Source: a virus
DNA: 64,000 nucleotides
Virus record (IMG/VR): IMGVR_UViG_3300035130_000101
Span: 1-64,000 of that record
Reading direction: 5' to 3' (one strand)
In this document: piece after piece, positions 943 to 61,606 of the stretch
Layout: every line of letters starts with the position of its first letter
Position numbering within the stretch: position 1 is the stretch's first letter
Notes under the pieces: model-generated
What the model saw: the letters and a program-made list of their open reading frames with translations, nothing else
Told to the model about the DNA's origin: nothing
The model's database searches: none
Made by a program: the position numbers and the translations under genes

Positions 943-956
943 TCAATTCAAATTAA
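943..956. repeat. junction palindrome, degenerate copy
   Basis: TCAATTCAAATTAA; 6 nt from ATG 936. Confidence 0.4.
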
Positions 957-1033
957 AATAAAAAAGGGCATATCCTCACAGTGAGGATATGCCCAGGTTA
1001 AAGGCCAGTTGTTGTTAGGGCTTTAGTTCTATC

Positions 1034-1315
1034 TTATTCTATTATGAAAACTCGTGTCTCCACGTGTCTTATAGGGTAGAATTTTTCAGAACTAAGGTCA
1101 ATGGTCATTGATTGCTTCCCTTCTCTTTCTCCGACAGATTCAACCGTAATCAACTTGTCTAACCCCGGAAATTCACAAGATGGTTTCGGGTTTGGTAGCA
1201 GGGGATTCCGCTCCCTCTCTACTACTGCCTTTATAGCGACATCTACCAGTTCTATCCCAAAGCCAGAAATAATAGTTATGCCGGATATAGCTTTGATAAA
1301 ATCTCTGCGGTTCAT
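1034..1315 (-). CDS. hypothetical protein with Tat-like N-terminus
   Basis: MNRRDFIKAISGITIISGFG; its start overlaps the stop of the upstream gene. Confidence 0.45.
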   Translation of the reverse strand: MNRRDFIKAISGITIISGFGIELVDVAIKAVVERERNPLLPNPKPSCEFPGLDKLITVESVGEREGKQSMTIDLSSEKFYPIRHVETRVFIIE

Positions 1316-4300
1316 CTTATCTCTTCCAAAATCGCCGTCGCTCTCGCTTCGGCAATTCCCTTGATTTTTTGCAGCCCTTCCAATCCGGCTTGACGGATAG
1401 CTGCCGGCGTGTCAAGTCCGGCGTTTCTCATTCGCTTGGCAATGGCAGACGTGACAGCGGAGAGGGATTCAAGATCAAACTCTGGCGCATTTTGCACCGC
1501 TAAAGCTTCGGCTGCCTGTTGCCTTGCTTTGGCTTTGGCTTGTTCCAAACGTTCGAGAGGGGAAACGTAATCAGGCGGAGGCGTAGCAGACCGAACTTCA
1601 ACCGGCTTGACAACTTCCGGCTTGACTTGCCACTTGCCGGGTTGTAAGGCTACGTCTTGTTTGTGGACCAGGGTTTCAAGGCCGTGGTCACCGTAACCAT
1701 AGTTGATAACATATCCGTCTCCGCGTTTTGTATGTTGCAGATATGGCATACCAAACAATTCGCGCGGTGGCCGAGGCCAGACATAAGAGCCTCTAATGTG
1801 GTGATTGCCACGGCTGCCAATATAGGTCGCCTGTACAAAGTCGTCATCATTCATTGTCGAACTCGCTTCCATAACGGTACTACCACCGCTTTGTGATTGC
1901 TTTCTGCATCCACAGCCCACGTCCTTTATCTCCAGTTTCTTGTGCTTCGTTCTTATGTATTCTAGCACATCTTCAGCTTTTTGTCTACCATCTTTGCTAT
2001 CTAGCTCGATATGCCGCTCGCCGGCTCGTAGCCGGTAACGGACTAACTTTTCTGGCAGATGCTTGAAACAATGCCCGGCTTTGGCTAACCTTAGCCAGTA
2101 GTCCCAATCTTCGAGTGTGTCCATTGCCTCATCAAAGCCGCCGATCTCGTTGTGCCAGGCTCGCGGCAAGAGCGTTGATACCAAGTTCCAATTGTAAGCC
2201 GTCTCCAGGGTGGTCGGTTCGGCTAATGCTTTTTGACAGTCAAACGGACGGCGTTCATAGGCTATAATAGCCTCGCCGGTTTTGGGATTGTAGCTCTCTA
2301 GCCGGTTTTCTTTTTGGAGTTTGCGGGCCGACGTTTCGTTGATGACCGCCTGCCCGACGTAATCGGTATAGATAGCCGCCTGGTACTGATTCCAGTAGTT
2401 GACCATCTGGCCCAGGGCGTCAATCGGGCGAAGGGTGTCATCAGCGTCAAGGAAGAGGATAAGGGGGGCGCGGGCTATTTCTACGCCACGGTTACGGGCG
2501 TAGCCTGCGCCAAGGGGTTTTAGTTCTGTTTTGTATTGAGTAAGGGGAACATATCTGACATACGGATATGCACTTAATATGTCATAATCATCTTGATACC
2601 ATCCCGTAGTATCAGTATCATCAACTACAATCGCCTCCCATCGCCTAAACCTTTGCGATTCCAGGGAATCGAGCGCATCGATAACGGTATGCTCATGACT
2701 AGGCCCAACGGGAATGATGACGGATACTATCGGTTCGTCATACTGGCGCACCGGGTGACTGATACCGTTGATAGGCGTGGCGTAGCTGGCCAGTGGGTGG
2801 TGATGGTCACTTACCCACGAATGCCAGCCTCGATAATCTGTCATCTTATGCTCACGGTTGCCAGTTACGAGGCCAGATTTCCAGGAGTAGTGGAATAGGC
2901 CCTTGTCGGTGACCTTGCGCGCCTTCCAGCCATAAGCGCCCATTCGCAACCACAATTCCCCGTCCTCTTCCCCCGCTCCGTCCGGGCAGTATCTTGCCCG
3001 ATAACCGCCAAGTCGCTCCCAAACAATACGCCTGAAAACGTTGCAAGTCCAGACGGTATTAACGCCGTCTATCATCCGGTCATAGTCCCACTCAGGATTA
3101 CCCGGCGATAGCTGTACCGTCCCATCCGGCTCGTGAGAAGTCAAGCCGGTATAGGCCAACCCGAGCGAGTTGTCCGCTTCCAATTCCTTGACACAAATCT
3201 CAAGGAAAGTTGGATCAAGCCAATCGTCGCTGTCTAAGCAACAGACATACTTAGATGTGGTGTGAGCTATGCCGTTGTTACGGGCAATGGCTACGGTTTG
3301 GTTAGGTTGGTGAATGACTTCGACCGGATAGTAACTCTGTGCGCCCATTCCGGCCAAGCTATCGTATTGCTCAGATAACCCCGGTTTACTGCCGTCATCA
3401 ACGATAACGATCTTTTCCGGTTTGATCGATTGAGACAAGCAGCTTTCAACGGCTCGTTGAACCTGCTCGACTGGCTTATTGTAGACAGGAATGATAACGC
3501 TAACAGACGGCGGCTCAACTATCATTGCCAGCCGGTAAACATTAGCAATCGCTTCACACGCCGCTTGCCATGTATAAGCCCTTGCTGCTTCCCGGCCATT
3601 GTCACCCAGTGCCTTGCCGTATCTCAAACAATAGTCCAGACCTTCGGTAATGTCATCCTCGTAGAGATAGCCGGTTTGCCCGTGTTCTATCAGGTCAACG
3701 TTACCACCTTTGTTGATACCCAGGATCGGCTTACCGGCGGCCATCGCTTCAAGGGTAAGCAGGCCGTAGGTCTCCTTAGCTGGACTGATAACCGCCTTGC
3801 TGCCCTGTACGAGCTTTTTCATTTCATCGTAAGGGATAGTGCCGCCCAAACCGTGAACATTGGACGGCGCGCCCTTCGGGGCGAATGTGCAAATAAATTG
3901 AATGTTAGGGAATTGCTTGGCTAACTCGGTGACGAAGAGATTAGAGCAAGCGTCACTTACCCGATTTTTGGGGTAAGCAATAACGTAATTTTCCGGCTCA
4001 AGATTATGCTGCCATTCTTGCCAGTCAACGCCGTGACCAATGATATGGGGCGTGAATCGTAAATCCCGCTGGAACACTTCTGCTACCCACGCGCTGGGTA
4101 CAGTCACCTCTTTGGCATAGTGCAAAATATTAACGATGCGCCGGTTGGCTTCGTACTCGCTTTTGGACGCGTCATAATCTGCGGTAAAGTACAATCCGTG
4201 ACTGTGATTGACTACCGGCTTATCTTTCGGCGGAGCGACTTCGAGTGAACCGGCGTGAACGGCTAGCAGGTCATACTGCTTGGCTTGCGGAGTGACTAGC

Positions 4301-4413
4301 TCGATATCGTAGTCGGGCAGGTACTTAAAATAATTCCTGACAACGGTATGAATTCCGCTTTCTCCGCTCTCGAACCACTCGATGTACGGTAGCATTTTTA
4401 CTTTTAGTGTCAT
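1312..4413 (-). CDS. multidomain glycosyltransferase (GT4-like N-term, two GT2 domains, HhH-like C-terminal tail)
   Basis: 1033 aa. GT-B motif LTLEAMAAGKP. Two GT-A signatures: VSVIIPVYN...IVIVDDGS...DSDD and VSVIIPVGP...AIVVDD...DADD. C-terminus reads LQKIKGIAEARATAILEEI. Confidence 0.85.
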   Translation of the reverse strand: MTLKVKMLPYIEWFESGESGIHTVVRNYFKYLPDYDIELVTPQAKQYDLLAVHAGSLEVAPPKDKPVVNHSHGLYFTADYDASKSEYEANRRIVNILHYAKEVTVPSAWVAEVFQRDLRFTPHIIGHGVDWQEWQHNLEPENYVIAYPKNRVSDACSNLFVTELAKQFPNIQFICTFAPKGAPSNVHGLGGTIPYDEMKKLVQGSKAVISPAKETYGLLTLEAMAAGKPILGINKGGNVDLIEHGQTGYLYEDDITEGLDYCLRYGKALGDNGREAARAYTWQAACEAIANVYRLAMIVEPPSVSVIIPVYNKPVEQVQRAVESCLSQSIKPEKIVIVDDGSKPGLSEQYDSLAGMGAQSYYPVEVIHQPNQTVAIARNNGIAHTTSKYVCCLDSDDWLDPTFLEICVKELEADNSLGLAYTGLTSHEPDGTVQLSPGNPEWDYDRMIDGVNTVWTCNVFRRIVWERLGGYRARYCPDGAGEEDGELWLRMGAYGWKARKVTDKGLFHYSWKSGLVTGNREHKMTDYRGWHSWVSDHHHPLASYATPINGISHPVRQYDEPIVSVIIPVGPSHEHTVIDALDSLESQRFRRWEAIVVDDTDTTGWYQDDYDILSAYPYVRYVPLTQYKTELKPLGAGYARNRGVEIARAPLILFLDADDTLRPIDALGQMVNYWNQYQAAIYTDYVGQAVINETSARKLQKENRLESYNPKTGEAIIAYERRPFDCQKALAEPTTLETAYNWNLVSTLLPRAWHNEIGGFDEAMDTLEDWDYWLRLAKAGHCFKHLPEKLVRYRLRAGERHIELDSKDGRQKAEDVLEYIRTKHKKLEIKDVGCGCRKQSQSGGSTVMEASSTMNDDDFVQATYIGSRGNHHIRGSYVWPRPPRELFGMPYLQHTKRGDGYVINYGYGDHGLETLVHKQDVALQPGKWQVKPEVVKPVEVRSATPPPDYVSPLERLEQAKAKARQQAAEALAVQNAPEFDLESLSAVTSAIAKRMRNAGLDTPAAIRQAGLEGLQKIKGIAEARATAILEEIR

Positions 4414-4417
4414 TTGA

Positions 4418-4666
4418 TTATATCAAGTCCTTCATCGAATTCTTCCACCAAATACATAAGGATATAGCAAGAAGCAAAATCCCTATGACAATAAATACAG
4501 TAATCCAAAGAATAATACCAAAAAAAATAGTGCAAAGACTCAAAAATATTAATAAGACAGTTATAGTTTCCTCAGAAAGTCTTGATCTTTCATAATTCAT
4601 CAAAGCCAATACCTGCTCTGGAGTCAATCTTTTTAATTCATCTTCTGAAAAGTCTTTCAATCTCAT
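4418..4666 (-). CDS. small transmembrane protein
   Basis: 82 aa with a long hydrophobic stretch (VLLIFLSLCTIFFGIILWITVFIVIGILLLAISLCIWW). Confidence 0.45.
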   Translation of the reverse strand: MRLKDFSEDELKRLTPEQVLALMNYERSRLSEETITVLLIFLSLCTIFFGIILWITVFIVIGILLLAISLCIWWKNSMKDLI

Positions 4667-4689
4667 TTATCTATATCCATAGTTTTTTC

Positions 4690-4703
4690 TCAATTGCAAT
4701 TAG
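4690..4703. repeat. junction palindrome
   Basis: TCAATTGCAATTAG; overlaps the stop codon at 4700-4702. Confidence 0.6.
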
Positions 4704-5053
4704 GATTTTTCAGAATCGGCATTATCCGAATCTTCCAAGCGCATCATTACGCTTTCCATTTGTTCTATAGCTTGCCTTATTTCATTTAGGTGGAATCGTT
4801 GAATGGCGAAAGCTCGAATAATGTCAAATACGTGCGACTCATCACGTTCATCTATAGCGATATACTGACCAATTTCGCCTATCTTTTGCCAATCCCAGGG
4901 CTGGTCGTCTATAGCCTCTTGAAGACTTCTGAGTGTTACAGATTCTTTTCTGGTGAGTTGAATGATGATACCACCAGCGTAATCTGGGTCAGACAGAACA
5001 TCACCAACTTCTGTTTCTTTTGTATGGTATGGAATATCACCAATCTTTTTCAT
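4700..5053 (-). CDS. hypothetical protein
   Basis: 117-aa ORF in an operon context; its start overlaps the stop of 5050..5688. Confidence 0.5.
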   Translation of the reverse strand: MKKIGDIPYHTKETEVGDVLSDPDYAGGIIIQLTRKESVTLRSLQEAIDDQPWDWQKIGEIGQYIAIDERDESHVFDIIRAFAIQRFHLNEIRQAIEQMESVMMRLEDSDNADSEKS

Positions 5054-5688
5054 TGTTCCACTTCGCCTATCCGGTCCCTGATAAAAGCCTCGTATTGCTC
5101 AGGCGTGTCGAAGTCGGTAACGTAATCGGTTATGCTGCTATGGATCTTCTCAAAGTGGGGATGATTGGTATCATACTCGTTTTTATCTTTGATGTCATAG
5201 TAAGTATGGTACAGGTTGCGGAGCTTGCCAAAATGCTCGCCTCTTGCCGCTTGCTTGATAGTCTCTTTCGCCGCCTCTATCACTCTTGGCTTGTCATAAA
5301 AGGACAGGGCAAAGATTTCGTGTGAACTGCCAAAGACAGTAAACCGGCCCTGCTTGGATAGTATCAAGTCAAGTGACCGGGGCGAGTAAAGCACATCGCC
5401 AAGCAGGATGACTATCTGCTTGCTGTACCATTTCTCCGAGGTGCTTAGTAACGTTTCCGTAGTCCATCGCCGTCGTTTGGGTGCTAACCAGTGCCGGACT
5501 TGCCCGGTAATCTCTGGTCTATTAGTGACGACAATTGGCCTGTTTCTACCCAATAGCCGGATCGTCCTCAGTATAAGCGGTTCACCTTTAATCGGCAATA
5601 GCTGCTTTATAGGGTACTCGCTCCATCGCTGTTGCTCACCGGCGGCAAGGATGAAGATGTCCATTGGCGAAACGCCCCTCTTTTTCAT
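5050..5688 (-). CDS. nucleotidyltransferase-like (sugar-phosphate NTP-transferase fold)
   Basis: N-terminus DIFILAAGEQQRW...LLPIKGEPLI resembles the LAAGxGxR...K motif of sugar nucleotidyltransferases. Confidence 0.5.
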   Translation of the reverse strand: MKKRGVSPMDIFILAAGEQQRWSEYPIKQLLPIKGEPLILRTIRLLGRNRPIVVTNRPEITGQVRHWLAPKRRRWTTETLLSTSEKWYSKQIVILLGDVLYSPRSLDLILSKQGRFTVFGSSHEIFALSFYDKPRVIEAAKETIKQAARGEHFGKLRNLYHTYYDIKDKNEYDTNHPHFEKIHSSITDYVTDFDTPEQYEAFIRDRIGEVEQ

Positions 5689-5695
5689 CTCTCTA

Positions 5696-5893
5696 TTACT
5701 CTATAAAATATATCTGAATAAATGACTGGTGATGTTCATAATAGCCTATCAAGACTAACAGAGCAAACACAAAAAAAATACCGATTAATGTTAACATTAT
5801 CAAGGTATAATAGTCACTGTATAGATCAAATGGCAATGTCCACGACAGAGCGAAATATATCAACAACAGAATACAGAAAATAATCCCTATCAT
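5696..5893 (-). CDS. small transmembrane protein
   Basis: 65 aa with two hydrophobic helices. Confidence 0.4.
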   Translation of the reverse strand: MIGIIFCILLLIYFALSWTLPFDLYSDYYTLIMLTLIGIFFVFALLVLIGYYEHHQSFIQIYFIE

Positions 5894-5895
5894 TC

Positions 5896-6429
5896 TTATT
5901 TACACATCCAAATCGTCCGCCACTTGTCCCGGTCTTCGACTAATGTTTTGCCGATGGACTTAATTGACTGAAAGCCACAACCTCGCAAAAACGTTTCAAA
6001 ATCAACATCATCTTCGATTCTGGTATAGGGGAAGCCGGGACCGTCACCGTCGTATTGAGATTCTATCAAAGCAATCTCAGAATGGTTTCTAATCCAATCC
6101 AGAATATTGGTCGGATTGTCGAGATAGGGCAGAACAGAAAAGCAGATGACGATATCTATATCAAATGGTGGAGGTTCCGTACACAATTCGCCAATGTCTC
6201 CGCCAGTTATCCTGTCTATAAAAATACCATATTCAGCGGCCCTCTTATGCAATAGGAACGTGTTCTTGTCAACTCCTATTGCTTTGGCATTAGCTAATTT
6301 GCACCTAAATAATATATCACCGCCGCCACACCCCAAGTCAAGCACCGTCTTGCCAGCAAAGTCAATGTGCTGGCTGATAATATCCCACTGTGCGGGCGCT
6401 CTGGTATTATGCAATGGCGGCAATTTCAT
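5896..6429 (-). CDS. class I SAM-dependent methyltransferase
   Basis: Motif I VLDLGCGGGD, followed by an acidic loop GVD. Confidence 0.75.
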   Translation of the reverse strand: MKLPPLHNTRAPAQWDIISQHIDFAGKTVLDLGCGGGDILFRCKLANAKAIGVDKNTFLLHKRAAEYGIFIDRITGGDIGELCTEPPPFDIDIVICFSVLPYLDNPTNILDWIRNHSEIALIESQYDGDGPGFPYTRIEDDVDFETFLRGCGFQSIKSIGKTLVEDRDKWRTIWMCK

Positions 6430-6832
6430 CTAATGTTCTCCTGAGCCAATATTCGTCTCCCTCGCGGCGTTTGCTCGGTCGCGGGTCACACTCTAATCGG
6501 CTCTCGCTAAAGTCAATCAGGTAGGGATGATTGTCTCTAATCAGGATATTCGGCCTGGTCAGGTCGCCATGCCTGATACCGGCAATCTCCAGAGCTTTGG
6601 GTATCTTGTCAAAATGGTAAGCTAACAGGTCAATGTCGGTTACAGGTGTCTGTTCGATGTGGTGCAAGCGGATTGTCTCTATGTCTGTCTGCTCGGCATA
6701 TGGTACGTAGCCGGAGGGGTAAAGCGTCCTGAGGCACCATATTTCGTTATCGGTCATAAATTTAGGCTGAGTCTTGTAGACCCAAACGCCGTTACCGACT
6801 ATTCTGGATATACCGTTGTCAGAGATAATCAC
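6407..6832 (-). CDS. small kinase-like protein
   Basis: IRHGDLTRPNILI...YLIDFSES resembles the HxDxxxxN catalytic loop plus a DFG-like motif of LPS/aminoglycoside/protein kinases. Confidence 0.5.
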   Translation of the reverse strand: MIISDNGISRIVGNGVWVYKTQPKFMTDNEIWCLRTLYPSGYVPYAEQTDIETIRLHHIEQTPVTDIDLLAYHFDKIPKALEIAGIRHGDLTRPNILIRDNHPYLIDFSESRLECDPRPSKRREGDEYWLRRTLDEIAAIA

Positions 6833-7158
6833 AGTACTTCAAACCATTTACAATAGGTGATTTTACACATAGATTCCAGTTCCAAAAAAATCATTGCTGA
6901 CGAATCACTACTCCCGGCTACTGGATTATGTACTACCTTATCAATAATCCTCACGATCTCACCAATAACGACAGATCCTTTTGTTCCTTTTTGAATGATA
7001 TTAAATTTTGTCCCAATCTCTAATAGAGGTTGAACAGAATCAACTGGGCCAAAAAAGTGTATCTCTCCGTCTTGACATATCAAGTTGACATCAACCGGCA
7101 AAGGCTCCATATCATCAGTAGTGCAAAGATAATAATTTGTATTTAATTCCCAGGTCAT
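6829..7158 (-). CDS. hypothetical protein
   Basis: 109-aa ORF with overlapping stop/start junctions to its neighbours. Confidence 0.45.
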   Translation of the reverse strand: MTWELNTNYYLCTTDDMEPLPVDVNLICQDGEIHFFGPVDSVQPLLEIGTKFNIIQKGTKGSVVIGEIVRIIDKVVHNPVAGSSDSSAMIFLELESMCKITYCKWFEVL

Positions 7159-7205
7159 AATAAACAGTCCTTTTGCTAATTACGTTCATAGATTTTCTAG
7201 GTTGC

Positions 7206-7658: not shown

Positions 7659-7695
7659 TTTTGTACCTTTCCGCCTACAATAATGACATAGAGTG

Positions 7696-8420: not shown

Positions 8421-8430
8421 TCTCAATTCA
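8421..8430. repeat. junction palindrome half-site
   Basis: TCTCAATTCA; 5 nt from ATG 8415. Confidence 0.3.
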
Positions 8431-8528
8431 CCAGTCACCATCATTCATAAGCCTATCGTGGCAGACAAAAAACTGACGATCATTACAATAGACCAGACAA
8501 AATAAGCATATTTCGATGTCACTTTTTC

Positions 8529-8542
8529 TCAATTCAAATTGA
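8529..8542. repeat. junction palindrome
   Basis: TCAATTCAAATTGA; contains the stop codon of the aminotransferase gene (..FNLN*). Confidence 0.55.
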
Positions 8543-12679: not shown

Positions 12680-12693
12680 TCAATTTCGGTTGA
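12680..12693. repeat. junction palindrome, variant
   Basis: TCAATTTCGGTTGA; 6 nt after stop 12700 and 6 nt before ATG 12673. Confidence 0.5.
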
Positions 12694-13274: not shown

Positions 13275-13306
13275 TGTTCACTCCCTTTCTATCTGTCTGA
13301 TTATTT

Positions 13307-13320
13307 CAATTGCGGTTAAT
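13307..13320. repeat. junction palindrome, variant
   Basis: TCAATTGCGGTTAA; lies between promoter 13347-13376 and ATG 13274, so it is transcribed. Confidence 0.55.
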
Positions 13321-21081: not shown

Positions 21082-22784
21082 CCTGCCTGAGTCCAGCCCA
21101 GTTCATTCCACCATAACCCCGTCGAGCCGTCCTGCTTGGCCTTGTTCTGTTCTGGCCCTGGCACTTCGCCTGTCACCTGATTTTGCTTGGTGAAAAGCTC
21201 GCTCTTGACAAACGAGGCCAGCGACGCTTCCGGGATGGAAGCCGCCTGTTTTTCAAGCCGCTCTTTGTCCGTTTTCTCCAACTCCTTGAGCCGGCTATCA
21301 ATGACCTGGACGCTCTCGCCAATGGCCCTGATAGAGGTGGTCAAAGCCCGGACTGCCTCGACCATATCCGCCGAAGGCTGCTCCGCTTGAGCCGGGGCAG
21401 GTTGCTCTTTGGCCTGTTCTACCGGTGGCGTCTTTTCTTTGCTCTCCGTTCCGGCGTCGCTGGCTTGCTTGGCCCGCTGCGCCAGCTCATCTTCCATTTG
21501 TTTTACCCGCTCCTCGCCAAAGGCTGCAATGAACTCCTCTCGCTTGTGAGCCGGTATCTCTTTTACATCGTTCATACCGTTACTCTCCTTACTGATTAAA
21601 TGAAACGCTAAACTGTTAGCTGCCGCCTTTGTCGGCAGGAACGTAATTTCCCTACTACGCCGGCGAGTGATAATCGACTTGTCCTTATCATCTTCCCGGC
21701 GCACCTCTTTGCGAGGCATACCGTGTGACATCCCCCGCCAGTTTGCTTTGATGACACCTTCAGCCGCCCACCCCTTATCTTTGTCGAACGTGCCGCCGGC
21801 GATGCAAAAGCCGGACTTTTCGTCATAGGCGTGATAGTGGGTTTTCCCGACCGGATAGGGATAATGCCACAGCCAGACTTCCGGCATCGGCCACTCGCCG
21901 CTATTTACCGCCTGGTCGAACTCTTTGTGAGCGTCGGAGGAGATGATCTCAGGCGGGTTGTCGTTGTCACGGTAATTGTTGGTATATGCGCCAAGCCAGT
22001 GGTATTGCCCGTCCACCTCTTTCCAGATGTGAGAGAAGGTATTTTTTTCTAACTGCGGTTGAGATTTCTCTTTCAGGCCGAATATCTCTTTGGTTTTGGC
22101 AATGGCCCGGTCGATAATCGTTTCCTGCTCGACTTCCTTTTGGGTGTTTTCCAAGATGCGCCGGGCTTTGGCTTGCAACGAGGCTTTCTTGTCAGCGGAG
22201 ATGCCCTTCATCTGAGGGATACGGGCGATTGCATTGCGTATATGGGGCAGATCAACTTTGCCGGAAGCGTCTTTGTAGGGCAAGTGGCGACAGGTGCGGG
22301 GCTTGGTTTTGTTTTCGCTGTCCTTTTCGCCGCAGCCGGATTCAACGTAGAGGAAGCTGGAGTCAGGTAAGTTGTTGACGAAAGCGGTTGACCAGACGGC
22401 TTTCAAAACGTCGTCACGATCATCAACCTCTTTATCGTCGCTTTCATCTATCTCTTTCAAATCACCACGAGCCACACCCATTCGGTTAATAAACTCCCCG
22501 GCCAGATTAGCCAGAGCGCCGGGCTTGTCCTCTACCATATCGGACATCATAATATTTGAGGCCAGGTCCCTGAAATACTCGGTCGCCTTGCGTACATCGG
22601 CTTCCATCTCCCGGCTTTCCATATAGGCGTCAAGCTCTTCAAACGAAGTAATACCGGGCGGAATCCACATCGGTTCATCATACATCTTAGTAACGTCGGC
22701 CTCTTTGGTTTCCTGGCCGGCGTCTTTGTTTTCGGTATCTTCGGCTTTGTCTGCGGTTTTTGGGTCGTCTGCTTTGTTGCCCAT
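21069..22784 (-). CDS. putative scaffolding / head-maturation protein
   Basis: 571 aa with acidic, Lys/Glu-rich ends and coiled-coil-like C-terminal segments. AAGGTGG RBS. It sits upstream of the capsid gene. Confidence 0.5.
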   Translation of the reverse strand: MGNKADDPKTADKAEDTENKDAGQETKEADVTKMYDEPMWIPPGITSFEELDAYMESREMEADVRKATEYFRDLASNIMMSDMVEDKPGALANLAGEFINRMGVARGDLKEIDESDDKEVDDRDDVLKAVWSTAFVNNLPDSSFLYVESGCGEKDSENKTKPRTCRHLPYKDASGKVDLPHIRNAIARIPQMKGISADKKASLQAKARRILENTQKEVEQETIIDRAIAKTKEIFGLKEKSQPQLEKNTFSHIWKEVDGQYHWLGAYTNNYRDNDNPPEIISSDAHKEFDQAVNSGEWPMPEVWLWHYPYPVGKTHYHAYDEKSGFCIAGGTFDKDKGWAAEGVIKANWRGMSHGMPRKEVRREDDKDKSIITRRRSREITFLPTKAAANSLAFHLISKESNGMNDVKEIPAHKREEFIAAFGEERVKQMEDELAQRAKQASDAGTESKEKTPPVEQAKEQPAPAQAEQPSADMVEAVRALTTSIRAIGESVQVIDSRLKELEKTDKERLEKQAASIPEASLASFVKSELFTKQNQVTGEVPGPEQNKAKQDGSTGLWWNELGWTQAGWRQ

Positions 22785-24836: not shown

Positions 24837-24850
24837 TCAATTGCGATTGA
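24837..24850. repeat. junction palindrome
   Basis: TCAATTGCGATTGA; 5 nt after stop 24856. Confidence 0.65.
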
Positions 24851-30485: not shown

Positions 30486-30499
30486 TTAATTGCAATTGA
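30486..30499. repeat. junction palindrome
   Basis: TTAATTGCAATTGA; contains the stop codon at 30486-30488 (..LNCN*). Confidence 0.6.
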
Positions 30500-33011: not shown

Positions 33012-33040
33012 ATTTTAGCACATTGCCCGTTTTTTTTCAA
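33012..33040 (-). promoter_or_regulatory. sigma70-type promoter, near-leaderless
   Basis: On the minus strand: TTGAAA, 17-nt spacer, TG-C-TAAAAT. The -10 ends 6 nt upstream of ATG 33005. Confidence 0.45.
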
Positions 33041-33050
33041 TAGTGATTGA
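33037..33050. repeat. junction palindrome, variant
   Basis: TCAATAGTGATTGA; overlaps the -35 of promoter 33012-33040. Confidence 0.4.
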
Positions 33051-33612: not shown

Positions 33613-33626
33613 TCAATTGCAATTAA
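33613..33626. repeat. junction palindrome
   Basis: TCAATTGCAATTAA; overlaps stop 33623-33625 and lies 17 nt from ATG 33595. Confidence 0.6.
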
Positions 33627-37471: not shown

Positions 37472-37485
37472 TGAATTGCAATTGA
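37472..37485. repeat. junction palindrome
   Basis: TGAATTGCAATTGA; 5 nt after stop 37491. In gene sense it is followed by AAAAAAGGAG. Confidence 0.65.
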
Positions 37486-39385: not shown

Positions 39386-39399
39386 TCAATTGCGATTGA
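39386..39399. repeat. junction palindrome
   Basis: TCAATTGCGATTGA; directly after the 39403-39496 terminator in gene sense. Confidence 0.6.
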
Positions 39400-40882: not shown

Positions 40883-41104
40883 TTACCTCAGCCACACGCT
40901 AAACAGGTCTTTGATCAGTGACCAGTTGTCATTAAGGTCCTGACTATCCAACCCGGCCGCGTGGAGCTTGCCGATCAACGTACCGGTTGGCTGCTCGCCG
41001 GCTTTGATCGCTTGCCAGGCATCAGCGGTGTGTTCATCCATAATGCGACGGATGATAGCACCCTTGTCAGATTTTTTTGAATTGCAATTGAAAGAAAGCG
41101 TCAT
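40883..41104 (-). CDS. hypothetical protein
   Basis: Start taken at the ATGA overlap with the upstream stop (41101-41104); an alternative ATG is at 41041. The palindrome motif lies inside the 5' part. Confidence 0.4.
   Translation of the reverse strand: MTLSFNCNSKKSDKGAIIRRIMDEHTADAWQAIKAGEQPTGTLIGKLHAAGLDSQDLNDNWSLIKDLFSVWLR
41078..41091. repeat. junction palindrome
   Basis: TGAATTGCAATTGA; 9 nt after stop 41101. Confidence 0.6.
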
Positions 41105-42888: not shown

Positions 42889-42902
42889 TCAATCGCAATT
42901 CA
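42889..42902. repeat. junction palindrome (plus-strand operon)
   Basis: TCAATCGCAATTCA; 2 nt after stop 42886, followed by AAAAAAAGGAG and ATG 42916. Confidence 0.65.
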
Positions 42903-44030: not shown

Positions 44031-44044
44031 TCAATCGTAATTGA
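44031..44044. repeat. junction palindrome within a 30-nt dyad
   Basis: AAAAAATCTCAAT cgta ATTGAGATTTTTT spans 44023-44052. This copy could act as a weak bidirectional terminator. Confidence 0.55.
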
Positions 44045-45728: not shown

Positions 45729-45742
45729 TCAACCGCAATTCA
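45729..45742. repeat. junction palindrome, variant
   Basis: TCAACCGCAATTCA; 5 nt after stop 45723. It is followed by a terminator rather than a gene. Confidence 0.55.
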
Positions 45743-49432: not shown

Positions 49433-49446
49433 TCAATTGCAATTGA
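49433..49446. repeat. junction palindrome, perfect
   Basis: TCAATTGCAATTGA; 5 nt after stop 49452. It is followed by a terminator in gene sense. Confidence 0.7.
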
Positions 49447-51121: not shown

Positions 51122-51135
51122 TCAACTGCGATTGA
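51122..51135. repeat. junction palindrome, variant
   Basis: TCAACTGCGATTGA; 5 nt after stop 51141 and 6 nt before ATG 51115, with no SD. Confidence 0.6.
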
Positions 51136-53678: not shown

Positions 53679-53692
53679 TCAATTGCAATTGA
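53679..53692. repeat. junction palindrome, perfect
   Basis: TCAATTGCAATTGA; 7 nt after stop 53700 and 12 nt before ATG 53666. Confidence 0.7.
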
Positions 53693-53699: not shown

Positions 53700-56600
53700 T
53701 CATCCAATAAGCGCCTTTGCTACCTGATACTGCTGGATAACCGACTGCGGGGAGGCCAACGTGTTAACTGTCATATTGAACGTGTTATTTCTGTCGCCAC
53801 CACCTTTTAGCATCCCGGCTAATCGGTCCATAACCAGGCTGTCAATCGTCATCCCTCTCGGCGTGACAAGCAACTCCTCACCCGGCTCAAGGTACATCGG
53901 GCCAAACGTGTCACCCCGACCTTGCCCCGGTATTTTGTAGCCCAGGCCCAAGCCGTTTTGTAAACCGATACCCCGCATAAAGCCGATGCCTTTAGAAAAG
54001 CCGATGCCGGTTTGTGCGCCGGATGCACTGCCAGCATCCTGCGCTGCCCGTGCCGCCTCTTTAGCAGCCTCCGCCATTTTCCTGAAAGCCTCTTCTGCGT
54101 CCATAACGATCTCGATTAGATCATCGATAGCATCGGCAGCATCTTCCATATCGTCGACGATCTTTTCAGCCGCCCGAGATGCCGCTTCGCCTACTGCCGT
54201 GAAAGCCGAACCGAGAGCGTGAACGGCGGCAGTCAATTGATTGACCAGGGTCATAATAGCATTGATTGCGTCAGTGGCGGTTGTTTGGAGCGTCGGCAAC
54301 GTTAGCACGTAAATATCGATGAGTGCAGTATCAAGCGGTATTATCCCCGTATCTTTTAACAATAGTAGTTTCTCGGATATCAGATCATATGTCAGCGTGA
54401 AGGCATCTTGCAACAGGGGCAAAGTGATCTCTACAAAATCGAGAATGGATTGCACGAAAGCCGTCCATTGCTCCTGTACCGGTAGCAGTCCAGCAGAGAT
54501 AGATTCAAACGCTGCTAACGGGTCAGCAGTGTCAAACTCTGGTCCAGTTGACTCTTCCTCTCCGCCACCGAATAAGCTACTAAAAACACCGGTGACGGCT
54601 TCGACTGCTTTGCTTGCCAGCGAGCCTATGCCATCAATAAGACCCTGGATTAAATCAGCGCCAAAATCATAAAAAACGGTACTTGGTGAACTAATGCCAA
54701 GAGCTTCCTTAAAAGAGCTTATCAAAGCATTGGCACTTTCTGTTATAGCATTTTCCAAGTCCTGTTGAGCCTGTTTTATACCATTCTTGATACCATCTAT
54801 GATATTTGTGCCGACTACTTTAGCTATTGTTTTCATATTTTCGCCAATGCCATTTAGGACACTGGTAAGTTCGCTTATCGTCGCCGGCTCGACTTGTATG
54901 CCTATTTCATCGAGTAGGCCAGACACGATACCGGCGACGATTTGCGCCGCCAGTCCAACTATAGCTTGTGACACCGCCGATACTGCCGCTACCAGTCCGA
55001 TTATGATCTTGCCCAAGACCTTAGCCATCTCAGGGCCATTATCTCCAAAGTTACCAATTTGCTCGCCTAAAAATTGACCGATGGCAAAACCGGCATCTTT
55101 TAAGCCTGCTTGGGTTTCAGGTGATCCGGCCCATCTGATTATCTCCGCTACAACAACAATCAGTGCCTGAGTAGCCATATCAACGGCAGTATTAGTCCAT
55201 TCCCAAAATTTAGCAGCCCAGTCTGAGTGAGCCTCGATCAACTCCGGTGCATAGTCTCTAATCTTTTGCCCGACAAACCCGGTCAACTCAGCCATCTTAC
55301 CGGGACCATCAACGAGAGCGGTTACTGTCCAGTCCCAAAACTGATTGCCCCAAGTTGTTAATTGCGCCTCTATCTGAGGCCAAGCGTTATTGATAGTATC
55401 GACGATCATTTCAATGACCGCCTGAAAATCAGTCGCCCCGCTGCGAAATGCTTCTATCCAACTGCTGACAAAAGCGATGGCGTTTTCAAGCGCAGGCACA
55501 ACCTGATTATCCAGAGCATCGGTCAACGGGCCGGCAAAATCTGAGGCAAACGAGATACCCAGACTGATAAGCTGATTAACAAACGGCAATAGTCGAGTGC
55601 CAATCGTATCGGCCAGGGCGCGCAAGGTGTTTTTGAATAGCTGTATCTGACTTTTGGTGGTAGCGTATCGCTGCGCCGCCTCGTTTGCCAGGGCCGTGTT
55701 TTCCTCAAAAGCCCCGTTAGCCGTCTGTAAGGTGCGCTCTAACAGATCACCCGCCCCGGCCAGTGACAGAAATGACCGGATTAACCGTTGATCTTCCAGG
55801 CCCAACTCGGCCAGCGTATTAACAGCATCGTCACCTTGCGCCCCCAGGCCCTCGACAAAAGCCAGAAATGCTCCGCTTGCATCTTTCTCCCAAGCGGCCT
55901 TGAAATCCTCAACGGTCATATTAGACGTGGCTGCAAATGTCGCCAGCAGGTTACTATCTATCGGTTGCCCGTGCTGCTGCCTGAGTAAATCTGTTTCCGC
56001 TTGCAATTCCTGAATAGCCTGAGCTGTCTCAAAAGCCTTTTGCCGGGTCTTGTCGCCCAACTGCCGCCCGAACTCCTCAGCCGAGCCACCGGCGGCAATG
56101 AAAGCTTGCTCTTGCGCTAATAGCTCCGCTTGCAAGCCAGGAAATTGCGCCTCTAGCCTGGCGGATTCGGCATTGAGTTTTGTCAACTTGTCAACGTTCT
56201 TATCAATCTCATCTGTATAATCAACAAAGCCGGTAGCAGCCCCGGCCACGGCGTTATTGATTGCCAACAGAACCTTTTGTGTTGCCGTACCACCCGCTTC
56301 CGCCTCTACGCCAACCGATGACATTGCCGTACCGATGGCCAGTACATCAGCCTGGGTAAGCCCGGCTATTTTACCAGCCCCGGCTAGCCTCTCGCCAAAA
56401 GCCAAAATATCACGTTCTGTAGTAGCGAAGTTATTACCCAGGGCAACGATAGTCGAACCAAGTTGCTCGATATTCATCCCCATATCATCGGCGGAAATGT
56501 TGAAAATGTTGGAGATACGGGCCAGGCCGGTCGCAGCCTCTTCGGTCGAGAGGTTAGTTGATACACCCAGCGCGGCGACAGTTTCAGTAAATTCCAGTAG

Positions 56601-57044
56601 GGCATCTTTGCCGATACCCAATTGACCGCCCAGCTCACCGATAGCAGCTAATTCCTCGAAGGTCAAGGGGACTGTTTTTGTCAGATCAACAAAGCCAGCG
56701 CGCAACTCCTTGCCAGCTTCGTTCAATTCACCGATACCGGAAGTCAAGCCGTCTGTTGTTTTGATGACCCCGGCAAATGCATCTTCAAACGATATGGCCG
56801 TGGTAGTCGAGACAGTAGCCAGCGCGCCCACGCCAGCGGCCAGCGCGCCCACACCGGCGACGGCTACGCCTGCGGCAAGTTTGGCGGTACTGCCTAATGC
56901 GCTGCCGAGCTTGCCGAACATTCCGCCGGCTTTGTCGGCGGACTTACCTAAGCCAAGTTGGGCTTTGTCGGCTTTGGAGAGATCGCGGAGATATGAGTTA
57001 AGGTTGCGTGCTAAAAATTCTACTCCTACTGGTGTTAATGCCAC
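53700..57044 (-). CDS. tail tape measure protein
   Basis: 1114 aa, Ala/Gly/Leu-rich with long helical segments. TMP core-like AGKIAGLTQADVLAIGTAMSSVGVEAEAGGTA. GTG start with an AAGGA RBS. Confidence 0.85.
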   Translation of the reverse strand: MALTPVGVEFLARNLNSYLRDLSKADKAQLGLGKSADKAGGMFGKLGSALGSTAKLAAGVAVAGVGALAAGVGALATVSTTTAISFEDAFAGVIKTTDGLTSGIGELNEAGKELRAGFVDLTKTVPLTFEELAAIGELGGQLGIGKDALLEFTETVAALGVSTNLSTEEAATGLARISNIFNISADDMGMNIEQLGSTIVALGNNFATTERDILAFGERLAGAGKIAGLTQADVLAIGTAMSSVGVEAEAGGTATQKVLLAINNAVAGAATGFVDYTDEIDKNVDKLTKLNAESARLEAQFPGLQAELLAQEQAFIAAGGSAEEFGRQLGDKTRQKAFETAQAIQELQAETDLLRQQHGQPIDSNLLATFAATSNMTVEDFKAAWEKDASGAFLAFVEGLGAQGDDAVNTLAELGLEDQRLIRSFLSLAGAGDLLERTLQTANGAFEENTALANEAAQRYATTKSQIQLFKNTLRALADTIGTRLLPFVNQLISLGISFASDFAGPLTDALDNQVVPALENAIAFVSSWIEAFRSGATDFQAVIEMIVDTINNAWPQIEAQLTTWGNQFWDWTVTALVDGPGKMAELTGFVGQKIRDYAPELIEAHSDWAAKFWEWTNTAVDMATQALIVVVAEIIRWAGSPETQAGLKDAGFAIGQFLGEQIGNFGDNGPEMAKVLGKIIIGLVAAVSAVSQAIVGLAAQIVAGIVSGLLDEIGIQVEPATISELTSVLNGIGENMKTIAKVVGTNIIDGIKNGIKQAQQDLENAITESANALISSFKEALGISSPSTVFYDFGADLIQGLIDGIGSLASKAVEAVTGVFSSLFGGGEEESTGPEFDTADPLAAFESISAGLLPVQEQWTAFVQSILDFVEITLPLLQDAFTLTYDLISEKLLLLKDTGIIPLDTALIDIYVLTLPTLQTTATDAINAIMTLVNQLTAAVHALGSAFTAVGEAASRAAEKIVDDMEDAADAIDDLIEIVMDAEEAFRKMAEAAKEAARAAQDAGSASGAQTGIGFSKGIGFMRGIGLQNGLGLGYKIPGQGRGDTFGPMYLEPGEELLVTPRGMTIDSLVMDRLAGMLKGGGDRNNTFNMTVNTLASPQSVIQQYQVAKALIG

Positions 57045-60960: not shown

Positions 60961-61227
60961 ATGTCAAAGTATTTTACAGTAAACGAACTCCCTGGTTTGC
61001 ATTTTCTATGGTATTCTCGATTGCCGCTTGATGTCTGGTTGCCGCTCAAGCAATACGTCTATCAAAGAGACGGCGGTATCTGCCAGTATTGCGGTAATCA
61101 GTTTGCCTACGAAAAAACTCACTGTCATCACGTTTTAGAATTATGTGAAGGCGGTACAAACCACCCCACGAACCTCAAGACGCTTTGCATTGATTGCCAT
61201 AAAACCAGACACCCGTTTATGAAGTAA
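60961..61227 (+). CDS. HNH endonuclease
   Basis: CQYCGNQFAYEKTHCHHVLELCEGGTNHPTNLKTLCIDCH. ATG 60961 with a weak RBS; the track starts at TTG 60952. Confidence 0.75.
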   Translation: MSKYFTVNELPGLHFLWYSRLPLDVWLPLKQYVYQRDGGICQYCGNQFAYEKTHCHHVLELCEGGTNHPTNLKTLCIDCHKTRHPFMK

Positions 61228-61319
61228 TCTTGTGGCAGGGCCGTGGTACGGTGATGTGATGTGAGTTTTGGTGCGGCAAGGTGCGTCCGGGTGATGTAAG
61301 GATTGGCTTGGTAAGGTAA
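61228..61319 (+). repeat. GT-rich spacer
   Basis: Begins TCTTGTGGCAGGG immediately after the stop codon. Confidence 0.5.
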
Positions 61320-61351
61320 GGGTAGATTAAGTTCTACCCTTTTTTGTTTTT
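61320..61351 (+). terminator. rho-independent terminator of the plus-strand insert
   Basis: GGGTAGA ttaagt TCTACCC TTTTTTGTTTTT. Confidence 0.7.
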
Positions 61352-61606
61352 GGCATATTTGCATCGCTTACGTGCGCCTCGATTAGTAAACTTGCTTGAT
61401 GATAGGCAATCATTTCAGCTACAAATTCTCTTGGATATTCACCACGTCTTAACTTTAATAATTCATCTAAACCGGCTCCGCAATATATCGCTGCCCTAAA
61501 TTGAGAGAATAATCCTAAGCTACCATTGTGACTTGTAATCCCTACTGGCTTTCCAGAGCGAAGCGGATATTCTTCAATTGCAATACCGTTTCTTTTAATC
61601 CCGAAA
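61327..61606 (-). other. start-less 91-codon frame continuing the chaperone-like gene (+1 frame)
   Basis: Open from 61636 to the TAA at 61327-61329, with no ATG/GTG/TTG before codon ~65 counted from the slip site. It is reachable from 61595..62113 by a +1 slip at UUU CGG (61601-61606). Confidence 0.3.
61574..61587. repeat. junction palindrome, partial
   Basis: TCAATTGCAATACC; 7 nt after stop 61595, inside the +1 extension frame. Confidence 0.4.

Follow-up and report, generated by a model that had tools for sequence, protein, structure and literature searches.

The stretch of DNA analysed here (the window) comprises 64,000 nucleotides of the IMG/VR record IMGVR_UViG_3300035130_000101, and its source, an uncultured phage, is siphovirus-like. 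Eighteen strong copies of a palindrome, TCAAT-N4-ATTGA, whose local form is TCAATYGCAATTGA, are found in the window; they stand at the 3′ ends of genes and separate functional modules, namely packaging, the replication start, helicase/methylase, individual tail genes and the DUF6744 operon. Each copy is composed of two 5-bp half-sites ([TC/CT]AAT and ATT[GA/AG]) around a free central 4 bp, the centres of the half-sites being about one helical turn apart. The frame is dyad-symmetric with A/T-only flanks (W5-T-Y-core-R-A-W4), so that the whole word is 28 bp long; the dyad reaches into the flanks, where positions −2/−1 (T, Y) mirror +1/+2 (R, A), and positions −7 to −3 and +3 to +6 are A/T in about 95–100% of copies. 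Since the A+T content of motif-masked intergenic DNA is only 54%, the A/T flanks are part of the element. Many of the about 20 copies, direct and inverted, share a centre, TTGCAA occurring eight times and TCGCAA five times. Moreover, the motif supplies stop codons in two frames: TAA at −8 to −6 or at 2–4, and TGA, TAG or TAA at 12–14.

The exact word TCAATTGCAATTGA occurs twice in the window and never in shuffled sequence, and with up to three mismatches there are 26 matches, compared with 4.67 ± 2.27 (largest 13) in 100 dinucleotide shuffles. A 28-nt weight matrix was built from the motif copies, with a strong site defined by a gene-sense score of at least 26.7; it returned the 18 strong sites and one weaker site at 22049, while shuffles gave 0–2 matches at a score of at least 12. 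Intergenic gaps make up about 9% of the window, and every one of the 18 strong sites falls within such a gap or on its border (chance about 3e-17). The earlier note, which had described the palindrome as marking about 20 gene junctions and proposed a scan with a shuffled control, is thus borne out. Seven matches with up to three mismatches lie within genes (1098, 9848, 16504, 30266, 35916, 45152 and 48531); none of them has the A/T flanks, and their number is as chance predicts. The claim that no copy lies outside a junction holds for the 18 strong sites, with two caveats. The weaker copy TCAACCGCAGTTAG (22049..22062, minus strand, score 21.9) has A/T flanks and lies within a conserved 571-aa ORF (21069–22784), its status being uncertain, and the strong copy at 41078 is either junctional or, if the first ATG is used, within the first codons of ORF 40883–41104. 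Among about 50 copies in the window and its relatives, at most one, a doubtful one, is intragenic. The positions given before for perfect or near-perfect copies are right except 13307, which should read 13306. Of three copies called weaker, the one at 943 is full (score 26.7), and the other two, both on the minus strand and scoring below 12, are 3′ half-sites only: ATTGAGA at 8421..8434, with the ATG of 7696–8415 5 nt after it, and GCAATTGA at 61574..61587, with the stop of 61595–62113 7 nt before it.

The distance from the stop codon to the motif is anchored both in the window and in the relatives, and the next start codon after the motif may be as near as 6 nt or more than 200 nt away. In the window the upstream stop usually lies 5 nt before the core or is embedded in it, which agrees with the register noticed earlier. 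The 5-nt spacing is found on the minus strand at 24837..24850 (TCAATCGCAATTGA, score 35.1; stop of 24856–25482, with a 40-nt spacer), 37472..37485 (TCAATTGCAATTCA, 37.4; stop of the DnaC-like loader 37491–38546, then A6-GGAG-ATG of 37165–37452), 49433..49446 (the perfect TCAATTGCAATTGA, 32.6; stop of 49452–49991) and 51122..51135 (TCAATCGCAGTTGA, 32.8; stop of an 841-aa tail gene, the ATG of a Gp37-like tail gene following after 6 nt), and on the plus strand at 45729..45742 (TCAACCGCAATTCA, 35.5; stop of the HTH_17 gene 45373–45723). Overlap with the stop codon occurs at five junctions, not four as had been counted, all on the minus strand. TAA at positions 2–4 is the stop of 4700–5053 in the copy at 4690..4703 (CTAATTGCAATTGA, 34.4) and that of 33623–34177 at 33613..33626 (TTAATTGCAATTGA, 37.3; SD and ATG 17 nt on). 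The last three bases form the stop at 8529..8542 (TCAATTTGAATTGA, 30.6; TGA of the DegT aminotransferase gene 8529–9749), 30486..30499 (TCAATTGCAATTAA, 33.6; TAA of the GNAT gene 30486–31115, with the terminase module downstream) and 39386..39399 (TCAATCGCAATTGA, 27.8; after a T-run and upstream of the replisome-organiser gene 38467–39309).

Other spacings are 2 nt after the stop of 42683–42886 at 42889..42902 (plus strand, TCAATCGCAATTCA, 31.5; then A8-GGAG-ATG of 42919–43956) and, on the minus strand, 6 nt after the stop of 12700–12999 at 12680..12693 (TCAACCGAAATTGA, 30.9), 7 nt after the tape-measure gene stop at 53679..53692 (the second perfect TCAATTGCAATTGA, 32.2; ATG of the 841-aa gene 12 nt after) and 9 nt after the stop of 41101–41298 at 41078..41091 (TCAATTGCAATTCA, 30.3). 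The ATG of a 60-aa RHH-like gene (12491–12673) follows the copy at 12680 after 6 nt, and the same distance separates the copy at 943..956 (minus strand, TTAATTTGAATTGA; after the terminator 994→966) from the ATG of 667–936. At these two junctions and at 51122 there is no room for an SD, as had been stated.

With regard to transcription signals, about 14 promoters of the form TTGACA-17-TATAAT, as well as G+C-rich terminators, exist in the phage apart from the motif. The copy at 13306..13319 (minus strand, TTAACCGCAATTGA, 27.8) occupies about +21 to +34 of the promoter 13376→13347, which matches the consensus at 12/12 positions, and is followed after 31 nt by the SD and ATG of 12984–13274. The copy at 44031..44044 (plus strand, TCAATCGTAATTGA, 33.1), with perfect 13-bp arms, precedes the −35 of the consensus promoter 44065–44093 by 20 nt (centre about −62). 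A bidirectional terminator follows the copy at 45729, and the terminator 49424→49407 and the promoter 49379→49351 follow that at 49433. Copies stand between terminator and promoter, after terminators or before terminators, an arrangement more in keeping with a mark of boundaries than with a signal to start or stop.

The same motif density and stop-codon register are found in phages that share the early-region gene DUF6744 (48–95% aa identity), with 2–9 copies per contig, and on the four longest of these contigs all but one of the 30 copies are junctional. The motif was not found in L132, L133 and L124 (49 kb), which are closer relatives in the structural genes (terminase 76–83% aa identity). 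The motif therefore travels with the early-region module and not with the structural module, as is to be expected when a regulator is paired with its site. Among 34 copies on six related contigs, half-sites and flanks are preserved, and the central 4 bp are free to change (TTCA, TTGG, TCCA, TTTG, TCAC and others), the flanks being A-tracts or T-tracts in any combination. The half-sites are kept across genomes of 42–52% G+C with a neighbouring gene at 48% aa identity, which implies purifying selection. In addition, the copy that precedes the DUF6744 operon's consensus promoter, in the window that at 44031, is kept in all seven genomes, at 17, 19, 20, 20, 29, 29 and 41 nt from the −35, that is, roughly whole helical turns apart. 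The better conservation of the 3′ half in gene sense, noticed earlier, holds in the window, where departures from the motif number 20 versus 11 and the core is oriented with transcription in 15/16 copies (leave-one-out), but not in the relatives, where the core is symmetric and the polarity is absent (12 vs 9). Such polarity is unexpected for the site of a symmetric dimer and may come from the descent of the copies.

Several explanations that dispense with a DNA-bound regulator have to be weighed. It is highly improbable that an alternative sigma factor or a phage polymerase uses the motif as its promoter, or that the motif ends transcription as a factor-independent terminator. Its 3′ end and flank read TTGAGA or TTGAAA, which is −35-like, and five copies have a −10-like hexamer 16–18 nt downstream, the best being at 33037..33050 (minus strand, TCAATCACTATTGA, 30.0; TTGAAA-17-TGcTAAAAT before 32778–33005); the copies at 943 and 39386 follow terminators and precede genes with no other visible promoter. 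However, most copies have no such hexamer at the right spacing, three have an ATG 6 nt away, two are directly followed by terminators, the scanned proteins included neither a phage RNA polymerase nor a sigma factor, and the sigma-70 role is already filled by the separate consensus promoters. An intrinsic terminator is likewise rejected, because the motif has neither a G+C stem nor a T-run and the G+C-rich terminators exist beside it; the earlier judgement that it is neither an ordinary promoter nor a terminator is thus upheld. It is also distinctly unlikely that the motif acts in the mRNA as an A/U-rich element, with or without a weak 5–7-bp hairpin, recognised by a nuclease or RNA-binding protein, so that cistrons would be cut apart or translation termination and re-initiation tuned. 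The polarity of the window copies would suit such an element, as would the A-rich sense strand of both flanks in all genomes, the start of the motif within the footprint of a ribosome sitting on the stop codon, its occupation of the SD place at 943, 12680, 51122 and 53679, and copies inside operons where transcriptional control is unexpected. But the A-richness equals the general bias of A over T after stops and before starts, and is thus accounted for without a role in RNA; the core symmetry in the relatives would be useless in a single-stranded target; and several copies are placed beyond likely transcripts, immediately ahead of terminators or on the upstream side of promoters. In 51 copies from seven genomes, 84.9% of cells in the 7-bp stem are paired, and shuffling the 3′ letters gives 86.3% (491 of 500 shuffles were at least as high), CTAAT is never met by ATTAG in the same copy, and single-side changes often break the stem. 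The two halves thus vary independently without base-pair covariation, which fits a separate reading of two half-sites and speaks against a hairpin. The predicted hairpins (−2 to −8 kcal/mol) are no better than shuffles except at 44031, and Rfam holds no match, so that a selected RNA structure, one of the candidates of the earlier note, is disfavoured.

Explanations based on mobility concern the same junctions. A recombination site ending gene cassettes, comparable to attC at the 3′ end of integron cassettes, with units swapped by a site-specific enzyme or by short-homology exchange and regulation secondary, is unlikely. The anchoring to the upstream stop with a variable start distance and the stops supplied in two frames would suit it, and so would the layout of arms and centre, which is like that of simple recombinase sites, where the variable centre could be the overlap region. 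The comparison of genomes gives further support, real but of a circumstantial kind: L329 has two extra genes between two copies where L327 has one copy, L195 has an LRR-like gene between two copies, the homology of the window with L195 begins 5 nt before the copy at 42889, and at the orthologue of junction 24837 both L132 and L133 have an overlapping TAATG, relative to which the window has a 40-nt insert with the motif. Two gene indels are thus flanked by copies, but other mosaic breakpoints fall at stop or start codons, most of those between L327 and L329 lie away from copies, and the window breaks from L326 and L195 at 43954, 77 nt before the copy at 44031. Nor was a recombinase linked to the motif found: the only integrase-like protein in the window is truncated and adjoins the attC-like sites, which form a separate canonical attC-type array in a block without a palindrome copy, so that the link to these sites proposed before is not supported. 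Moreover, about 20 copies, many with the same centre, would destabilise the genome under an active site-specific enzyme, and copies are also found between tail genes, which keep their synteny in such phages. That the motif is a selfish, miniature palindrome of about 28–36 bp, spread into A/T-rich junctions by a transposase in trans and functionless for the phage, is very doubtful. It shares its palindromic form with REP and other small dispersed repeats; it occurs in one lineage only, is present or absent at orthologous junctions, and longer junction cassettes (motif, A-run, GGAGTGAACC and ATG) are common to non-orthologous sites. Against this, flanks combining A- and T-tracts in any way indicate a composition that is selected and not copied from a master, the half-sites are under purifying selection, and intragenic copies are practically absent; no target-site duplications were seen at the copies, no RAYT or IS200-type transposase was found, and the only TnpB seen, in L327, is missing from its sister L329.

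The explanation we favour, tentatively and at somewhat less than an even chance, is that the motif is a double-stranded DNA site of a dimeric protein that punctuates the modules as a roadblock or silencer and serves secondarily as a recombination linker. Among the candidates of the earlier note, a dimeric-regulator operator fits best, given the 28-bp dyad, the variable centre, the independent halves and the conservation in diverged genomes. A symmetric, probably dimeric protein of helix-turn-helix type would read the two half-sites, and the obligatory A/T-only flanks may extend the contact, or the bending of the DNA, to about 28 bp. The bound protein would block or dampen RNA polymerase passing between modules, acting as a genome-wide punctuation, and its place at the DUF6744 operon would be directly before the promoter. 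The repeated occurrence of one 28-bp word at many junctions, and in related phages as well, would also make this word a short homology linker for the gain, loss or exchange of genes. The tight stop-codon register is not required by a roadblock and is equally expected for a cassette-end site, and with only the truncated integrase-like protein in the window, lysogeny is putative. No binding protein was identified among the RHH, HTH and DUF6744 candidates considered, and the RHH and XRE proteins named earlier were not confirmed: the 60-aa RHH is present also in the motif-free L132, and the family of the small switch HTH differs, being XRE-like in the window and in L323 but HTH_17 in L325, L327 and L329. 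In the AlphaFold model of DUF6744 (pLDDT 80) a DNA-binding fold is not recognisable, and there is no PDB match (best E-value 0.005). The HTH_17 protein 45373–45723 accompanies the motif in every case where the region can be seen, in a set of genomes that are not independent.

Phage repeats of this kind are known but poorly understood. The proposed roadblock function resembles that of the stoperators of Cluster A mycobacteriophages, and the 17-bp repeats of Cluster O are another known repeat of similar kind. In stoperator systems the early lytic promoter is controlled through the same site, reused as its operator; unlike these, the copies in the window overlap no −35 or −10 of its strong promoters. 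In its anatomy, with kept half-sites around a free centre, the motif follows the pattern of 434/P22-type operators.

The palindrome that the earlier note had described at gene junctions is a real, non-random and conserved element. Its 14-bp word TCAATTGCAATTGA occurs exactly twice in the window and never in shuffled sequence, and at up to three mismatches there are 26 copies against 4.67 ± 2.27 in the shuffles. When the copies are aligned in gene sense, a longer element is obtained, W5-T-Y-TCAAT[T/C]GCAATT[G/C]A-R-A-W4, of which AAAAATCTCAATTGCAATTGAGAAAAA is a 28-bp example. A 28-nt weight matrix run over the window returned 18 strong sites and a weaker one at 22049 in a 571-aa ORF, while shuffles yield 0–2 matches at a much lower threshold; the supposed weak copies at 8421 and 61574 proved to be half-sites only. 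All 18 strong sites lie where the note had placed the motif, in or at the edge of the noncoding 9% of the window (chance about 3e-17). The spacings it gave were also found again, namely a stop codon 5 nt before the motif at five window sites and an ATG 6 nt after it at three; at five window sites the stop codon is embedded in the motif itself. The distances from motif to start in the window are 6, 6, 6, 12, 16, 17, 19, 21, 23, 25, 31 and 31 nt and then 76 to more than 200 nt, and the SD sequence, where present, lies outside the motif. Moreover, when 48 copies (the 18 of the window and 30 on the four longest relative contigs) were checked against gene calls, 47 were junctional and tied to a stop. 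On those contigs 29 of the 30 copies are at junctions with the same stop registers as in the window: the stop forms the last three bases of the motif in six cases and stands 5 nt before it in five.

The phage itself is an uncultured tailed phage with a tape-measure protein (53700–57044, minus strand), a large terminase (28291–29931) and a portal, together with a replisome organiser and a DnaC-like loader, helicases, methylases, a sugar-modification operon and many small ORFs. No cultured phage close to it was found; a near-identity search of 12 kb of the window against 50,697 phage records gave no match, and tblastn with the terminase gave distant Mu-like matches only. The terminase recurs unchanged on a 70-kb JGI contig, 36930–46715 is matched at 100% identity by a 9.8-kb Logan contig, and L331, from the search for homologues of the HTH_17 protein (45373–45723), is the same phage at 100% identity. 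The signals for transcription are those usual in bacteria: about 14 promoters in the window fit TTGACA-17-TATAAT at 11–12 of 12 positions, and the terminators are clear and G+C-rich. The long operon on the minus strand of 1–12520 encodes sugar-modifying enzymes (a DegT aminotransferase, an NAD epimerase/dehydratase, FkbM and other methyltransferases, an NTP transferase and a 1033-aa multi-glycosyltransferase), whose predicted role would be glycosylation of the virion or the DNA. At 23095–22785 (minus strand) a promoter of perfect consensus, a leader of about 230 nt and a strong terminator stand in this order immediately ahead of the 571-aa and 511-aa late genes; this layout resembles, by analogy, the lambda PR′-tR′ late operon that needs an antiterminator, and it is kept in two relatives without the motif (L132 11745–11974, L133 6549–6753). 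On the minus strand of 13510–13380, an 11/12 promoter is followed after about 90 nt by a terminator-like hairpin (13396 to 13382) with no ORF, a candidate small RNA located just upstream of the promoter at 13376 to 13347. In addition, many 6-bp palindromes are wholly missing from the window, namely CTCGAG (14 expected), AGGCCT (11), CGATCG (9), CTGCAG (8), CAGCTG (5) and ACTAGT, which suggests strong avoidance of restriction sites.

The 18 strong copies are distributed over blocks A, C, D and E of the 64 kb, including the tail and replication genes, and they bound recognisable modules: the small and large terminase through the head genes (30486 to 24837), the replisome organiser and loader (39386 and 37472), the helicase/methylase unit (37472 and 33613), an 841-aa tail gene (53679 and 51122), the Gp37-like tail genes (51122 and 49433), a 345-aa gene (42889 and 44031), and the unit of the DUF6744 and HTH_17 proteins (44031 and 45729). 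The block at 14.2–19.5 kb is free of them, with no copy in 10 co-directional gaps vs 18 in 36 elsewhere (Fisher p = 0.004). The weaker copy at 22049–22062 (minus strand), well flanked by A/T, falls within the conserved 571-aa ORF, whose L132 orthologue lacks it; it could be a chance match or a functional intragenic site.

Terminators and promoters adjoin the copies in different orders. A terminator precedes the copy at 943 and 39386 in the window, at 5524 and 8400 in L323 and at 11192 and 13249 in L327, and follows it at 45729 and 49433. Before the consensus promoter of the DUF6744 operon (44065–44093 in the window) one copy is kept in all seven genomes, at 17, 19, 20, 20, 29, 29 and 41 nt from the −35 hexamer. 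No copy covers the −35 or −10 of any promoter matching at 11–12 of 12 positions, the nearest standing at +21 to +34 (13306) and at about −62 (44031). The leader of the DUF6744 promoter, ATAGATAGTATAGATAGATAG at 44094–44115 (about +1 to +20), is kept at the equivalent places in L326, L195 and L323 and is conserved in relatives down to 71% amino acid identity. Considered as a second dispersed motif, its sequence ATAGTATAGA was dropped, since it occurs at only one place in the window; the leader is likely an operator at which another regulator acts. Non-orthologous genes (37453–37472, 42903–42918, 13275–13290 and 44120–44140) and relatives, L195 among them, also have in common a stereotyped cassette for ribosome binding, A6-8-GGAGTGAACC-N3-4-ATG; whole junction cassettes, beyond the palindrome alone, appear to be reused.

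The distribution of the motif among relatives follows the early region and not the structural module. The three relatives recognised by structural genes, L133, L132 and L124 (83%, 76% and 48% terminase amino acid identity to the window), contain no copy in 49 kb, and where the window has at 24837 a 40-nt spacer holding the motif, their orthologous junction is an overlapping TAATG. By contrast with these, searching with the DUF6744 protein (Pfam DUF6744, 44141–45304) recovered motif-bearing contigs: L326 (95% amino acid identity, 2 copies), L323/L324 (71%, 9 copies in 13 kb), L325 (64%, 7), L329 (51%, 8) and L327/L328 (48%, 6), which come from groundwater and other environmental read sets and have 42–52% G+C. 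A pattern scan of metagenomes gave 71 loci with one true relative, L195, which carries three copies in 2 kb; L168 and L154 were discarded as unrelated tandem satellites. The exact 14-mer gave more than 119 matches in IMG/VR, all single and due to chance, and longer degenerate patterns gave two and then one, likewise chance. In GTDB, with one genome per species, there were 116 single matches, and since none of the genomes among the matches listed had several separate copies, no lead to a host or prophage was obtained. A shared-gene analysis showed DUF6744 to be the only gene common to all seven contigs, a universality that follows from the construction of the set; no homologue of it was found in cultured phages, and the motif sequence was not found in the literature searched. 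Sister contigs L327 and L329 also differ in a TnpB (OrfB_IS605/Cas12f-like) gene, full in L327 (7277–8419) and a 63-aa N-terminal remnant in L329 (9128–9319), so an IS605-type element has recently been gained or lost in this phage group.

Across the relatives the half-sites and flanks are kept and the central four bases are free, the family consensus being A5-T-Y-[TC/CT]AAT-N4-ATT[GA/AG]-R-A4-5. CTAAT and ATTAG are mirror-image variants, and they often supply the stop codon. In the window the core is polar: its 5′ half often has C at positions 5–6, the mirror change in the 3′ half is rare, and leave-one-out orientation agrees with the gene at 15 of 16 informative sites. In the relatives the mirror (inner) changes are about equal (12 vs 9), so the polarity looks like the result of copy descent within one genome and not a property of the family. 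The flanks are A-rich on the sense strand on both sides in all genomes, and intergenic DNA with the motif masked is only 54% A+T; the local excess of A over T after stops and before starts (1.5–1.7) equals that of the flanks, so the requirement is for A or T, and the choice between them tracks the background. A dyad of 28 bp in duplex DNA is the best description of the element.

Several simpler identities do not fit this dyad. As a sigma-70 promoter, only five copies reach 9–10 of 12 positions with the 3′ end of the motif as −35 (hexamers 16–18 bp apart), at three copies the ATG comes after 6 nt, and at two a terminator follows directly. As an intrinsic terminator it has an A/T-rich stem, an A-rich 3′ flank and no T-run after it; the terminator scan of the window called no copy, and the true terminators adjoin copies. 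The idea that the core consists of two MfeI sites, CAATTG, is also rejected: these number 42 against 39.5 expected, so the word is neither enriched nor avoided. A selected RNA hairpin is likewise rejected: predicted folds are weak and, except at 44031, not better than those of shuffles; over 51 copies from seven genomes the 7-bp stem is paired in 84.9% of cells vs 86.3% with partners shuffled, no compensatory changes were seen, and CTAAT in the 5′ half is never paired with ATTAG in the 3′ half. A search of the whole window with Rfam 15 gave no match at gathering score, and the half-site TCAAT does not seem to fit any of the consensus sequences of IHF, FNR, ArgR, CodY, cre and Zur. In summary, the motif belongs neither with promoters or terminators nor with start-associated sequences, attC sites or REP elements.

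The best-supported reading is that of an operator-like DNA site, which we regard as plausible, if still tentative. Short inverted half-sites one helical turn apart, a free centre, A/T flanks, half-sites that vary independently and conservation across diverged genomes together point to a symmetric protein that reads each half separately on the duplex. If so, the bound protein would block or damp read-through between modules, a genome-wide punctuation of stoperator type, and the repeated word might be used as a recombination linker as a by-product. The main rival, in which the copies are recombination sites at cassette boundaries, is unlikely in our judgement; its strongest point is the fixed register with the upstream stop, which a roadblock to RNA polymerase does not need. 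L329 has two extra genes between two copies where L327 has one copy, with the same terminator and promoter around; an LRR-like gene in L195 is bracketed by two copies; and L195 and the window become homologous again 5 nt before copy 42889, the homology continuing to the eighth codon of a gene that is otherwise non-homologous. Other breakpoints stand at stop codons away from copies, one of them at 43954, 77 nt before copy 44031. Since copies flank indels but breakpoints also occur elsewhere, the motif is associated with mosaic boundaries and is not their sole location. Carried further, the rival would make the palindrome the double-stranded site of a phage-native gene-cassette system, a counterpart of attC with which each gene or module ends: a putative enzyme would join sites with matching 4–6-bp centres, co-infecting relatives would swap or capture whole genes precisely at stops, and mismatched centres would protect the genome from self-scrambling. 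This fuller version is quite improbable; were it true, one phage would hold two cassette systems, since an attC array lies beside a truncated integrase in the same window.

That array, at 14390–17740 (plus strand), is integron-like and comprises about nine attC-like sites (CCTAAC ... GTTAGGC) after successive small ORFs, and no palindrome copy lies in the block of these sites (14.4–17.7 kb). Of three sites folded, two were better on the bottom strand than shuffles. Beside the array, 13488–14144 (minus strand) divergently encodes a 218-aa protein with only the N-terminal SAM-like domain of integron/Xer-type tyrosine recombinases, the catalytic domain being missing or degenerate. At 14138–14170 two convergent promoters overlap, both perfect or nearly perfect in consensus, and the leftward one would start at or beside the ATG of this gene, giving a leaderless-type message comparable to that of lambda cI. 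At the end of the block, 18297–19493 (plus strand) encodes a 398-aa protein with four tandem HTH motifs and a full-length match to phrog_4645 ‘endonuclease’ (E 7e-55), probably, on this homology, a free-standing homing-type endonuclease.

For the operator-like reading, no binder was confirmed among the scanned proteins and no gp71-like repressor was identified. The 398-aa protein was set aside as an endonuclease that sits in the copy-free block, the 60-aa RHH protein (12491–12673) as present in motif-free L132, and the small HTH proteins of the switch as varying in family among the motif-bearing genomes. In DUF6744 no DNA-binding fold could be recognised; a profile search found nothing among PDB sequences, and its AlphaFold model (pLDDT 80.5) had no Foldseek match in PDB at E ≤ 0.001. 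The HTH_17 protein (45373–45723) co-occurs with the motif wherever visible; its homologues are found on three further small contigs, two with the motif, and as these come from the sampling site of L323 they are not an independent test.

Observations of short repeats scattered over phage gene boundaries go back decades, and to our knowledge a mechanism has been demonstrated only for the Cluster A stoperators. The present family is a clean case, a simple and strongly conserved dyad found almost only at gene ends in a fixed stop-codon register, common to a clade of uncultured phages from groundwater, soil and other environments, and flanking gene gains and losses. If a binder is found, the family would be the second model, and a symmetric one, for how phages punctuate transcription across a genome, and the long-standing proposal that modular exchange is driven by conserved ‘linkers’ at junctions would become testable; the 28-bp word is also a ready metagenome marker for the phage group and its module boundaries.

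Operators of the 434/P22-type Cro/CI proteins, ACAA-N6-TTGT, are also 14 bp long with a conserved outer inverted repeat of 4–5 bp and a variable centre (uncontacted in the operator), but there are six per genome, overlapping promoters, whereas the motif has about 20 copies at gene ends. Integron attC sites are 57–141 nt long, with RYYYAAC...GTTRRRY, and are recognised by IntI as a folded single strand with extrahelical bases. Like them, the motif directly follows or overlaps the ORF stop at a variable distance from the next start and flanks gene gains and losses; unlike them, it is 14–28 bp, lacks the RYYYAAC/GTTRRRY cores, and is conserved in sequence while its pairing is not selected. The REP/BIME elements of enterobacteria are 35–40 bp, G+C-rich, form stable hairpins and are mobilised by RAYT transposases. 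The motif shares with them a palindromic and extragenic character and a position often within 15 nt of a stop between operon genes, but it is A/T-rich and forms no stable fold, and the window proteins scanned contained neither a Y1 nor a RAYT domain.

In Cluster K, start-associated sequences (SAS/ESAS) lie 3–8 bp before the start with the RBS inside (PMC4351075). SAS are anchored to the start, whereas the motif is anchored to the stop, with a start distance of 6 to 200 nt. SAS/ESAS, the T4-type PeSL cassettes and the lambdoid ‘boundary sequences’ are short conserved gene-boundary words recurring within a genome and its relatives, as the motif is, with presumed roles in expression and as linkers when modules are shuffled; the promoter and the stable stem-loop of PeSL are both absent from the motif.

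Two mycobacteriophage systems come closest, the Cluster A stoperators and the 17-bp dyad repeats found in Cluster O (PMC4351075, PMC9283540, PMC6550527). Cluster A stoperators (L5, D29, TipsytheTRex; gp71-type immunity repressor) are 20–35 copies of a 13–14-bp word in a 50–70-kb genome, proposed or shown to halt elongating RNA polymerase with the repressor bound (PMC9283540, PMC6550527; PMC4351075). Like them, the motif is dispersed in many copies over both early and late operons, with copies that lie in short gaps between genes or run into a start or stop codon. However, stoperators are asymmetric, read by a monomer and one-way with respect to transcription, and their sequence doubles as the operator of the early lytic promoter, while the motif is a dyad with A/T flanks whose copies overlap no promoter core, so that it fails two defining stoperator features, asymmetry and reuse as a promoter operator. 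The Cluster O repeats, TGTTCGG-N3-CCGAACA, are present in more than 30 copies with no function assigned, and two of them flank gene 14 of Corndog where relatives have one (PMC4351075), the same indel signature as that of L329 vs L327. Both families are inverted repeats with a free centre and genome-wide copies, separate from SigA promoters and without consistent orientation. About one third of the Cluster O copies lie inside genes, whereas the motif is junctional and stop-tied, and the obligatory A/T flanks belong to the motif and not to Cluster O. Their sequence is unrelated to TCAAT-N4-ATTGA; the layout is analogous and the family different. Dispersed junction repeats as such are already known in phages, and the motif is a further variant of that kind.
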